64,000 nucleotides of DNA from positions 4,352,001 through 4,416,000 of the forward strand of contig OZ242029.1 in NCBI GenBank assembly GCA_965205015.1. Direction: 5' to 3'. The stretch's first letter is position 1; each line of letters begins with the position of its first letter. This document shows, piece by piece, positions 1-31,152 of this stretch. This stretch comes from Candidatus Poribacteria bacterium. GTDB taxonomy: Bacteria; Poribacteria; WGA-4E; WGA-3G. The position numbers and the translations under genes were made by a program. Under the pieces are notes generated by a model that saw only the letters and a list, made by a program, of their open reading frames with translations, did not search any database and was not told the DNA's origin.

Positions 1-105
1 TGCTTCTCCTTCTTTTGCTTTTATTTTGATGATAGACCACTGCTATACTTTAGGAATATTTTAACAATTATACCTTAGTTTCGTCCATAAAGCAACCCAA
101 AAAGC

Positions 106-27620: not shown

Positions 27621-29153
27621 ATGAAAACTCTCAACAACGAAATCGCGCTTAATCTTGACGGTGATGCAGAGGTGTCTGTCAAAGGTTTCATCGCGCCGAT
27701 TGAGTCCATGGACCCCAATTTCCATGAAGAATGGGATGCGCTGGCAAATTTGCGCGTTGCTGAACCGGAAAAGGCGTACTTTACTTCGGTTTTCCAAGCG
27801 TTCCTTCCAGATAAGCCTGTCTCCGTTGGGGATTACTGGCAGATTGACGACCAAGGCGCGCTTGCCTTGCTGAGGCAATTTCAACCCAATCCGAATCTGG
27901 ATATGCACATTAACGTCGGAGATTCCCGTGGTTTATGGGCATGCCTACGCGCGTACAACGCTGAATTCGCTGATATTGTGTTCCGCATCCATGCGGAATT
28001 TGCGTTAGAGGACGGTTGGTTCACGCCTTCTCAGTTTGCTGGACATCTGGTTATTGACCGTATGAAGAAGCGTGTCGTGTTTTTCCAGATGCGTGTTCCT
28101 GAAGATACATCGTTTGATGTCAACTGGAGGAAACACAAAGATCACTCTGGTTTTATTACCGGTGGTGGCGTTTGTCCGCACATTGAGCTTCTTACGAAAA
28201 TGCCAGATGTTACTCAGGAAACCGAGTTCACAACATCAATCGCGCGAGAAGAGGCTGAACGCATACTGATACAACGCTTCTATAAATCACAGCAAATTAA
28301 CTGGGTGCCATTTGAAGAGGCATCAGAAATATCACAAGCACAACAGAAACCGATCCATACCATTTCAGTCGATGGACCGCTCGCGGACGAGGCATGCTGA
28401 GGGAGCGGCAAAAACTTGAGGGCAGTTGTCCTCTCCGACGAACGAATCATTGAATTTCTGAACGAAAATTTTATCAATACGTGGGTGCGTAATGCCGAGC
28501 TTAGACGCATGCGTGATTCCCAAGGATTTGAGGAAATGCCTCCCTTGGCACGCACAATCATTACTAACAAATGGCGAAGAGGTCCAGTAGATACGTGGGT
28601 TATATCTCCCGAACTTGAAGCGATAGGACACGTAGCGGTCAATGATTACCTTGACAACAACCGCTGCAAGGATGGGACTTTGGAGAGTGAGAATTACCTC
28701 CTATTTCTCACGAATTCCTTAGAGGCAAAACTCCCCGGATTCGGGAACACTGTTCTCACACCCGAGCAACCCTCCCAACGAATATTGGACGTTGTTCGCA
28801 CCCCAGAATATGGACATCAAGACTACACGGTTGTCGTGATTGACACCACTGCATTTGAAAGAGGCGGTGCACTCATCATCGATATTGAAGTAGGTGGTGA
28901 AAAGGCGTATGGATCATTTCATCTTCTGGATGCCGATCACAAACTTACCTTTGATCCTTATTACAAACGTCCCGAAGGAATCCTTCTTGAGGAATCGCAC
29001 GACACAGGTTGGTTGAGTCCCAATGAAACGGGACAAATGACACATCGTTTTGAGTGTGGACAGATCTTCAAATTGGTCGCTCTGGGCTGGGCATCTAACG
29101 AGAAAGGAAGCATCAACGCTTTTCACGCAAGAATTTCTGTAGAGGAAAAGTAA
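27621..29153 (+). CDS. Selenoprotein N-like protein, copy 1 (510 aa, Sec at UGA 28398-28400)
   Basis: ORFs 27621-28400 and 28416-29153 are in one frame, joined by GPLADEAC-TGA-GSGKNLRAVVLSDERII; SECIS-like hairpin downstream; motifs resemble SELENON. Confidence 0.85.
28418..28433 (+). promoter_or_regulatory. Bacterial SECIS-like hairpin (copy 1)
   Basis: GAGGGC-AGTT-GTCCTC; loop starts 24 nt after the UGA. Confidence 0.7.
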
Positions 29154-29154
29154 A

Positions 29155-31152
29155 ATGGAAACTTCACCGAACAAAATCCCTCTCACACTCGGCAGGGATG
29201 CAGCAGTGTCCGTCAAAGGTTTCATCGCACCGATTGAATATACACAGTACAACTTCCACGTGAAATGGGATGAACTGGCGAACTTTCGCGTCGCTGAACC
29301 AGAGAAGCAGTACCCAACATCCATTTTTCAAGCGTTTCTTCCCTCGGAACCGGTTTCGGTCGGTGAATGTTGGGAGATTCAAGAAGAAGGCGCGCTAACG
29401 CTGTTGCGTCAACTTCACCCGAACCCACGACTGGACTTACACTTGGATTCTGGGGATTCTCACGGTTTGTGGGCATGTCTGCGCGCTTACAATAGTGAAT
29501 GTGCTGAAATTCTGTTCCGCATCCACGCCGAATTTGTTATGGAAAATGGTTGCTTTACACCTTCACAATTTGCTGGACGTCTCGTTATTGACCGGGTCCA
29601 CGGAACGATTGTCTCCTTCATGATGCACGTGCCGGCTGCCACACTGAACTTTGATGCAGGCTGGAGGGCCCCGGCGCATCCGGGGGGTGCCGCGGAAATC
29701 GGCTTTTGTCCGAAAATAGAACTCCGTACCGATATTTCAAGTGCTGTGCAGGACACCGAATTCACAGTATCTATTACCGAAGAGGCAGCGAAACGCGCGC
29801 TCATCTTGCGCTTCTATAAGTCACAGCAAATTAACTGGGTATCCTTGGCAGAAGCGTTGGAAATAGCACCCGCACAGCAAAAACCGATTCATGCGATTTC
29901 TGTAGATGGTCCCCTTGTAGATGAAGCCTGCTGAGGGACCGGCAAAGCTTTGAGGACAGGTGTCCTCTCCGACGAACGAATCATCAAATTTCTGAACGAT
30001 AATTTCATCAATACATGGGTTTCCAATTCTGAATTAGGACGCATTCCGAGTTTACGAGCTCCGATCGCCAAAAGACGCGAACGCGAGGGCAAGACCTTTG
30101 ATATGAACCATACTTTGGCACAAGCGATTATAAGAGGGTGGAGCAAATATTCACCGGTGGATTGTATGGTGATCACACATCAATTTGAATTGCTGGGGGG
30201 TATCGACTATAATGTGTTCCTCAGCAACTTGGGAGGTCTGCGCCACACAGAGGCTTACTTACTCTTTCTCAAGGGATCCTTGGACGGAAAACGCCCTGGA
30301 TTGGGAGACGTTATCCTTACTGCTCAACAGCCTTCACAGGAGGTAGTGGACACTTTTCGTATGGTCACGCCTGGGGAGTACACCGTCTTTGCCCTTGATG
30401 CTACAGCGTTTGAAGAGGGTGGCACGCTCAATATTGATATCCAAATCGGTAGAGACACGGCGGACGGTATGTTCTATCTGTTTCACGATGACAGCAAATC
30501 GCCAAAAAGAAAAAAGGTGCTTGATAGGGGAAAAAGCGATGTAGCGGTCTCTGACGCGCTTGCGAAAGTGCTGTGCTTATATGCCGGTGAAACGAAGCAA
30601 ATCAGACACCCTTTTGACCACGGTCAACGTTTTAAATTGTGTGCTATCGGTGATGAGGATGGGTGGTGCGGGGAAGGGGGCGTAAACGCTTTTCATGCAA
30701 AAATTTCTGTAGACGAACATTCCCCGAAGTCTCAGGTTGAATCCTTCACTGCCTCAACCCCTTTGAGCGTTATCCTCGACGGGACACAACCCTCGCAGGA
30801 GATATTGGATATTTTTCGCGCACCGGGAAACGGTTATCAAGATTACACTGTTGTCAATATCGATACAACAGCATTTGAAGACGGTGGCACGCTCAACATT
30901 GATATCCGGGTAGGGAGTGAAGAGGCGGCCGGTTCGTTTGATCTCTTTGATAGTGACACCGAACTCCCGACAGAGGGGATACCTGAAGCGCTCGTCTCGG
31001 CGTGGGTCATTAAATCCGGTAAATCGGGAACAATTAGCCATCGTTTTGAACGAGGTGAAATTTTTAGACTTGGGGCTACTGGAGACTGGTCCAGCGAGAA
31101 AGGGAGGATAAACGCCTTCTCTGCAAAAATTTCCGTGGAAACGGTAGACTAA
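29155..31152 (+). CDS. Selenoprotein N-like protein, copy 2 (665 aa, Sec at UGA 29932-29934)
   Basis: ORFs 29155-29934 and 29950-31152 are in one frame, joined by GPLVDEAC-TGA-GTGKALRTGVLSDERII; paralog of copy 1 with UGA at the same codon (260). Confidence 0.85.
29952..29967 (+). promoter_or_regulatory. Bacterial SECIS-like hairpin (copy 2)
   Basis: GAGGAC-AGGT-GTCCTC; same offset from the UGA as copy 1. Confidence 0.7.

Follow-up and report, generated by a model that had tools for sequence, protein, structure and literature searches.

Bacterial selenocysteine insertion sequence (bSECIS) elements are described by the model of Zhang and Gladyshev (2005), which, as restated in PMC13188914, asks for a loop of 3–9 nt on a stem of 4–16 bp, a G in the first two loop positions that is mostly followed by a G or U, 16–37 nt between UGA and loop, and a folding energy at or below -7.5 kcal/mol. 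The SECIS of Escherichia coli fdhF (sequence taken from NC_000913.3) is an intragenic hairpin that is read by SelB. In animals, selenoprotein N (SELENON, also SEPN1) is an EF-hand protein with an SCUG motif and, in the human protein, the residues Sec462 (Sec, selenocysteine) and Arg466 (PMC12839072). The coding region of its mRNA contains a stem-loop less than 10 bases after the UGA, the selenocysteine redefinition element (SRE), as described in PMC1440920 and PMC8704476. The SRE is accessory; the essential eukaryotic SECIS lies in the 3′ untranslated region (UTR), where it is read by SBP2 and EFSec. Here, we describe two hairpins that lie directly behind in-frame UGA codons in two selenoprotein N-like genes of a Candidatus Poribacteria bacterium (assembly GCA_965205015.1, contig OZ242029.1, positions 4,352,001 to 4,416,000 of the forward strand; this whole stretch of 64,000 nt is the window referred to below). 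The host bacterium is a sponge symbiont. Judging from sequence comparison, we consider it very likely that each hairpin is a bacterial-type SECIS specifying Sec insertion at the UGA upstream of it.

The two genes are paralogous, tandem and co-oriented on the + strand, and each contains one in-frame TGA. Reading through this codon results in two proteins with the motif DEAC-U-G(S/T)GK, with C-U-G at residue 260 in both. The features on which the argument turns are given below, with positions in brackets counted from the U of UGA as +1.

27621..29153, + strand: gene 1, predicted selenoprotein N-like selenoprotein of 510 residues, Sec at 260, DEAC-U-GSGK (frame open through a single TGA; homologues)
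28398..28400, + strand: UGA of gene 1, predicted to be read as selenocysteine (in frame; aligned TGA in 265 relatives' copies)
28418..28433 (+21..+36), + strand: putative SECIS hairpin of gene 1, 6-bp stem GAGGGC/GUCCUC with loop AGUU (-7.7 kcal/mol alone; RNAalifold; homologue conservation)
29155..31152, + strand: gene 2, predicted selenoprotein N-like paralogue of 665 residues, Sec at 260, C-terminal beta domain duplicated (read-through translation)
29932..29934, + strand: UGA of gene 2, predicted to be read as selenocysteine (in frame)
29952..29967 (+21..+36), + strand: putative SECIS hairpin of gene 2, 6-bp stem GAGGAC/GUCCUC with loop AGGU (-8.3 kcal/mol alone; within the minimum-energy fold)

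Both hairpins have the same layout, in which +21..+26 pair with +31..+36 and enclose a loop at +27..+30. The sequences and positions given for them in a first-pass annotation of this DNA are exact, with 17 nt between UGA and the first stem base and the stem starting at the 18th base after UGA. The difference it had pointed out at the fifth pair is equally correct (G·U in gene 1, A-U in gene 2), and is a one-sided, non-synonymous change from GCA (Ala) to ACA (Thr).

Set beside the bSECIS model, the loops of 4 nt and stems of 6 bp lie within the described sizes, and each loop has a G at its second position, followed by a G or U. The distance from UGA to loop is 23 nt (+4..+26) in both window copies and invariant in an alignment of 150 copies. 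Both window hairpins fold at or below -7.5 kcal/mol, as do 193 of 212 family copies over +19..+42. Like bSECIS elements, the hairpins lie in the coding region directly 3′ of the UGA. They differ from the consensus in having a stem at the short end of the range and no supported lower helix, a 3′ arm that can slip by 2 nt (resulting in two registers), and an extra mini-hairpin that contains the UGA itself. Compared with fdhF, the window hairpins are likewise intragenic, and the family shares an apical CAGGU with it (C-AGGU-G in the main Poribacteria family, GCA-GGUC-UGC in fdhF). In fdhF, an apical GGUC at +22..+25 sits on GCA/UGC, and the identical tetraloop is found in distant Poribacteria paralogs. 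However, the Poribacteria loop is 5–6 nt further from the UGA (+27/28..+30/31 versus +22..+25), and the hairpin has neither a bulged U nor a long lower helix reaching back to the UGA. We would regard it as an ordinary bacterial SECIS.

The evidence that carries this reading comes from relatives. Named homologues were found only in Candidatus Poribacteria (402 proteins, mostly annotated at 280–282 aa and cut at the UGA). In species-representative genomes, scanning turned up 311 encoding stretches, and 77 loci were kept (74 titled Poribacteria and 3 'uncultured bacterium'), while five related whole genomes contain 16–34 family matches each, nearly all with one internal TGA and often in tandem arrays. 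A profile search over 1.84 billion representatives returned 803 matches at E up to 0.001 (50%-identity clusters), 542 of them at E up to 1e-10; among the matches listed, many stop at position 280, directly before the UGA. In total, 265 relatives' copies have a TGA at the aligned position and no other stop, corresponding to 218 distinct 105-nt segments and 212 distinct 1203-nt segments.

A perfect 6-bp hairpin is present in 211 of the 218 distinct UGA copies. Six pairs form in the original register in 185, and in another 26 the 3′ arm has slipped 2 nt along a CUCUCY run, giving six pairs around a loop of 6 nt (or 4 nt plus an extra A-U pair); the remaining 7 have at most five pairs. The first-pass annotation had presented the hairpin as conserved, and among UGA-bearing homologues this is borne out: when codons are resampled synonymously with the codon usage of the family, a perfect hairpin arises in 1776 of 42400 sequences (4.2%), compared with 206 of the 212 real ones (97%). 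Likewise, the mean folding energy over +19..+42 is -8.8 kcal/mol for the observed sequences versus -3.4 for the resampled ones.

The same preference is visible codon by codon, when choices within the hairpin (n=218) are compared with the rest of the same 1203-nt gene segments as background. The Arg codon at +22..24 is AGG in 83% and AGA in 17% of copies and never CGN, while in the background AGG is the rarest (8%), AGA makes up 19% and CGN 73%. The first Leu codon of the hairpin is YUG in 98% (background 39%) and the second is CUC in 96% (background 18%). The third base of the Ala/Thr codon, which is the first loop base, is A in 99% (background GCA 36%), and that of the loop codon is U in 217 of 218 (background 35%). 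We take these data to show that the hairpin is kept by selection on the RNA and not on the protein. The loop codon itself (+28..+30; 28425-28427 and 29959-29961 in the window) is GGU in 132 and GUU in 74 of 212 copies, so that the protein has either Gly or Val here; apparently, the requirement for G-K-U in the RNA loop dictates this residue. Complete loops read AGGU in 131, AGUU in 73 and ACGU in 5 of these copies, with CGUU, AGGC and GGGU found once each; the five ACGU copies have a CGUG loop in a shifted register.

At stem pair 24-33, the two arms change in a way that preserves pairing: in the 218 copies it is G-C in 135, A-U in 28, G-U in 28 and A-C in 0, and it is unpaired in 27, mostly slipped-register ones. 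Written as codons, AGG+GUC occurs 129 times and AGA+GUC never, whereas with a U as partner AGA+GCU (27) and AGG+GCU (23) are both found. RNAalifold and pair counting were run on an ungapped alignment of 150 of the 185 distinct 48-mers. From these 150 copies (-2..+45), RNAalifold predicts exactly the 6-bp helix and nothing else, at -8.29 kcal/mol. Pair counting finds 96.2% of cells paired compared with 94.9% in shuffles, and 17 cells with both sides changed compared with 4.3, each value being reached by 0 of 500 shuffles, although kinship alone can let related sequences exceed shuffles without any structure. Controls in which the 3′ arm was slid along gave 35–71% paired cells. When the 212 proteins are placed on a FastTree tree built with the hairpin masked, the minimum number of changes is 24 for position 24 and 19 for position 33. 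With more than 200 distinct copies, nature has in effect mutagenized a bacterial SECIS in this family: A27, G28 and U30 hardly ever change, position 29 alternates between G and U, and AGA is tolerated only opposite U.

We regard the distant paralogs as the best structural argument. These proteins read L-R-A-G-P-L-S at the corresponding place, and in their genes the predicted stem, which likewise begins at +21, is another one of 7 bp (GAGAGCG/CGCUCUC). All seven pairs can form in 10 of 12 copies, and the loop at +28..+31 is GGUC in all 12.

Several observations weigh against the hairpins being SECIS elements. Folded singly, the window sequences are no more stable than their dinucleotide shuffles (z of +0.40 and +0.55 for the 53-nt folds, -0.08 and -0.39 for the 91-nt folds), the minimum-energy 53-nt fold of gene 1 pairs GGGAG with CUCUCC and lacks the hairpin, and the energy of the gene 1 hairpin (-7.7) barely passes -7.5. 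Single-sequence folding is thus no better than chance, and the case for the hairpin therefore rests on comparison. In the comparison, the covariation term of RNAalifold is small (-0.18), three of the six pairs are invariant, and the 12 independent pairs on the tree are underpowered, with about 4 changing the same way, 0 the opposite way and about 8 with the partner unchanged (sign test, median p 0.125). Furthermore, all eight copies that have a Gly codon in place of the UGA still keep the stem, and the Sec machinery was shown in the genomes of relatives only.

The z-scores near zero and the three invariant pairs, together with the location of the hairpin where the protein is most conserved, are also what would favor a by-product, in which the likeness of the hairpins follows from a conserved L-R-x-x-V-L stretch or from recent gene conversion between paralogs, without any selection on the RNA. 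The sequence comparisons largely refute this explanation, to which we assign hardly any probability. The resampled and the real sequences differ as stated above (4.2% versus 97%); the Arg codon used is the rarest one while CGN is avoided altogether, AGA is absent opposite C, and the distant paralogs build their helix from other codons. At the third positions just 3′ of the hairpin (+39, +42, +45 and +54), the commonest base reaches only 39–57%. Variation this free, so close to the hairpin, speaks against gene conversion.

In five of five related genomes, a tRNA-Sec is found at 78 bits, with a full-length SelB directly beside it (346–355 bits, profile positions 1–579 of 581; an example of the tRNA-Sec and selB pair is G001:C1:3339964-3342059). 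SelA is present in five of five as well, and so is SelD, which itself contains one in-frame TGA. Within the window, a tRNA scan found none, and an Rfam scan at gathering thresholds gave no match, either to a SECIS family or to any other. The selD hairpin consists of GCUC and GAGC around a loop of CGGGU or CAGGG, about 16 nt past the UGA, and thus differs in stem, loop and spacing. The first-pass annotation had suggested that the window hairpins could define the SECIS model for the lineage. This did not hold: the strict motif TGA-N17-GAGRRCAGKTGYYCTC has 34 matches in the five related genomes (0 in the reversed control), all in the same family, and the selD hairpin departs from it in sequence and spacing.

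Based on these components, a mechanism can be proposed. With the UGA being decoded, the 6-bp stem and its A-G-(G/U)-U loop would sit just outside the mRNA entry channel of the ribosome, where the C-terminal domains of SelB could bind it. SelB would then compete with release factor 2 for the UGA by delivering Sec-tRNA(Sec) to it, presumably resulting in Sec insertion and a full-length redox protein with a thioredoxin fold and a C-U-G active site. Alternatively, the hairpin could be a helper of pausing or anti-termination that works independently of SelB, like the SRE, with the true SECIS elsewhere in the mRNA. Animal SELENON does have such a helper hairpin less than 10 bases past its UGA (PMC1440920 and PMC8704476), and synonymous constraint in the Poribacteria family spans -2..+36 including the mini-hairpin, so several elements may act. 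We nevertheless consider a SelB-independent helper improbable: the hairpin agrees with all four features that the bSECIS model asks for, a GGUC loop of the fdhF type always lies equally far from the UGA in the distant paralogs, and RNAalifold sees no other conserved helix within -2..+45 (the structure analysis reached +75).

In each gene, the UGA itself is enclosed by a second small hairpin, with the following coordinates.

28395..28410 (-2..+13), + strand: candidate second mini-hairpin enclosing the UGA of gene 1, UGCUG/CGGCA with a 6-nt loop (91-nt folds; synonymous resampling)
29929..29944, + strand: candidate second mini-hairpin enclosing the UGA of gene 2, UGCUG/CGGCA (91-nt folds; synonymous resampling)

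Across the family (UGCUG/YGGYA), all five pairs are present in 187 of 212 copies, compared with 29.7% under synonymous resampling. The codons involved are again biased, with Cys as UGC in 99% (background 42%), Ser always as AGY (22%) and Gly as GGG in 83% (16%). Covariation is impossible here because one arm is invariant, and the mini-hairpin is absent from the RNAalifold prediction over the 150 homologues. The mini-hairpin might belong to the recoding signal as its lower part and have a helper role. The first-pass annotation had noted a possible lower pairing of CGG with CCG. This pairing is indeed available in both copies (+9..+11 with +38..+40; 28406-08/28435-37 in gene 1 and 29940-42/29969-71 in gene 2), but it receives no support from covariation among relatives. 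Pair 9-40, the one pair in it that varies, can form in 157 of 212 copies, where 155.1 would be expected. Since the CGG is the 3′ arm of the mini-hairpin, the two pairings exclude each other. An alternative pairing of GGGAG with CUCYC was likewise rejected; it conflicts with the SECIS hairpin and shows no covariation.

Searches of the two window proteins against Pfam, NCBIfam and the sequences of the Protein Data Bank (PDB), as well as a PDB profile search, gave nothing meaningful. An AlphaFold2 (AF2) model has a mean predicted local distance difference test score (pLDDT) of 64.5, with residues 220–340 at 83–94, and places C259-U260 between a strand (245–250) and a helix (263–270). Foldseek relates it to the thioredoxin-like folds of DsbH, DUF255, ERp19 and AGR3 (probability 1.0, TM-score 0.5–0.65). 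As redox motif, the window proteins have A-C-U-G, and homologues have either this or S-C-U-G.

Outside bacteria, the matches of the profile search include cnidarian proteins, with E 1e-35 and 1.3e-31. In BLASTP, the gene 1 protein aligns with proteins of Nematostella vectensis and Sanderia malayensis over about 330 residues at 27–29% identity (E 1e-33 and 1e-35). The Nematostella match is named 'EF-hand domain-containing protein', and the other has weak EF-hand Pfam matches below the cut-off. The cnidarian gene models break exactly at C-U and resume with GSGRTLREG(P/A)LES. Their records name the proteins only as EF-hand or predicted, and among those retrieved none was named SELENON; a word-based search for eukaryotic SELENON (with P0002, residues 215–330) gave 24 matches, none with a source name. 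From these features, we infer that the cnidarian proteins are SELENON orthologs.

The comparison with animal SELENON fits the window proteins being its bacterial relatives. Both have a thioredoxin-like domain and C-U-G followed by S-G and a basic residue, with a basic residue four positions after Sec (U260-G-S-G-K264 in the window). In contrast to animal SELENON, the bacterial proteins have no EF-hand and no transmembrane N-terminus by Pfam (neither window protein has any Pfam domain at E up to 0.1), an extra C-terminal beta domain, a family multiplied in tandem arrays, and a predicted intragenic SECIS in place of a 3′-UTR SECIS plus SRE. The suggestion of the first-pass annotation that a eukaryote-like selenoprotein is decoded by a bacterial-type SECIS is therefore supported by the agreement with the bSECIS model, the conserved hairpin, SelA, SelB, tRNA-Sec and SelD in five of five relatives, and the alignment with cnidarian proteins. 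In the literature searched, we found no paper on a bacterial selenoprotein N or on a selenoprotein expansion in Poribacteria, and two reviews of prokaryotic selenoproteomes are silent on bacterial selenoprotein N in their main text.

An entirely different possibility is that the UGA is a true stop that separates two genes or forms a programmed-termination pair, with the hairpin serving coupling, re-initiation or mRNA stability. The public annotation indeed has two open reading frames (ORFs) per gene, most database homologues end at the UGA, as described above, and each hairpin contains a TTG (28416 and 29950). This is highly improbable in our view, given where the UGA sits and how it is kept. 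In the predicted model it comes right after a Cys, where a helix begins past a beta-strand in a thioredoxin-like domain, and it is fixed in the 265 copies that contain no other stop. The cnidarian homologues align across the junction, related genomes encode the Sec machinery, and eight copies continue through the position with a sense codon for Gly. Contigs from RNA libraries (four runs of one study, from a relative that is about 92% identical) also span the junction, running unbroken over 27621–29140 across the UGA, in one run from 27679; they are weak evidence and cannot prove transcription or read-through. Elsewhere, TGA is the ordinary stop of 9 other long ORFs in the window, with the next stop within 0–56 codons, and the code is therefore not reassigned.

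The eight Gly copies (GGA in 5, GGC in 3) belong to one orthologous clade and have a continuous reading frame. Each of the five GGA copies is one mutation away from UGA, and the three GGC copies, which form one lineage, are the only sequences without the loop G (AACU). No Cys forms were found among the homologues. The Gly forms are encoded at loci L078, L108, L109, L112, L115, L118, L124 and L125, and an N-terminal insertion (about 28 residues) sets their clade apart; within this clade, UGA has become Gly several times and never Cys, while sister genomes keep UGA. A Gly in place of the supposed catalytic Sec is unusual. Variants with Trp and Thr (P0015–P0017) are known as proteins, and a metagenome scan for DNA of the Trp variant P0016 gave a single locus, another UGA copy. 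A search of the ESM Atlas with the Gly-form homologue P0007 gave only a Poribacteria cluster, at 0.77.

If the UGAs are read as Sec, the public annotation splits two single selenoprotein genes in this window, and does likewise in hundreds of relatives. The hairpins also invite a comparison with the SRE, which, like them, is a coding-region stem-loop a few bases past the Sec UGA of a homologous gene (PMC1440920, PMC8704476, PMC2248747 and PMC12839072). The bacterial hairpin codons (L-R-A-V/G-V-L) align with the cnidarian L-R-E-G-P/A-L. It is tempting to speculate that the SRE and the bacterial SECIS descend from one element, located on homologous L-R-x-x-x-L codons, and we hold this to be rather unlikely but worth stating. 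On this account, the SELENON gene would have moved between bacteria and early eukaryotes or animals with the hairpin included, the hairpin being kept as an accessory after the 3′-UTR SECIS took over, or the transfer would have run in the reverse direction. If true, the hairpin would be a molecular fossil that joins bacterial and eukaryotic UGA recoding. SELENON is the gene of SEPN1-related myopathy, and the bacterial copies make the origin of its UGA-adjacent hairpin directly testable.

Some further features of the locus and its relatives are worth mentioning. Gene 1 starts 4 nt past the stop of an upstream ORF that resembles inosine monophosphate (IMP) dehydrogenase. A scan of the window for further frames of at least 200 codons with a single TGA gave four candidates. 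One database protein (P0152, from a Logan contig) is annotated as a 668-residue protein in which regions 2 and 4 of an extracytoplasmic function (ECF) sigma-70 factor are fused to a selenoprotein N-like domain; the fusion may be genuine, or the annotation may have run through from one gene into the next. At their N-termini (27621–27700 and 29155–29230), both window genes lack the signal-like hydrophobic segment of about 20 residues that most homologues have. At the other end of gene 2 (30300–31152), the beta-rich C-terminal domain occurs twice, with the segment QPSQE..DYTV..IDxTAFExGGTLxIDI..INAF.AKISV repeated.

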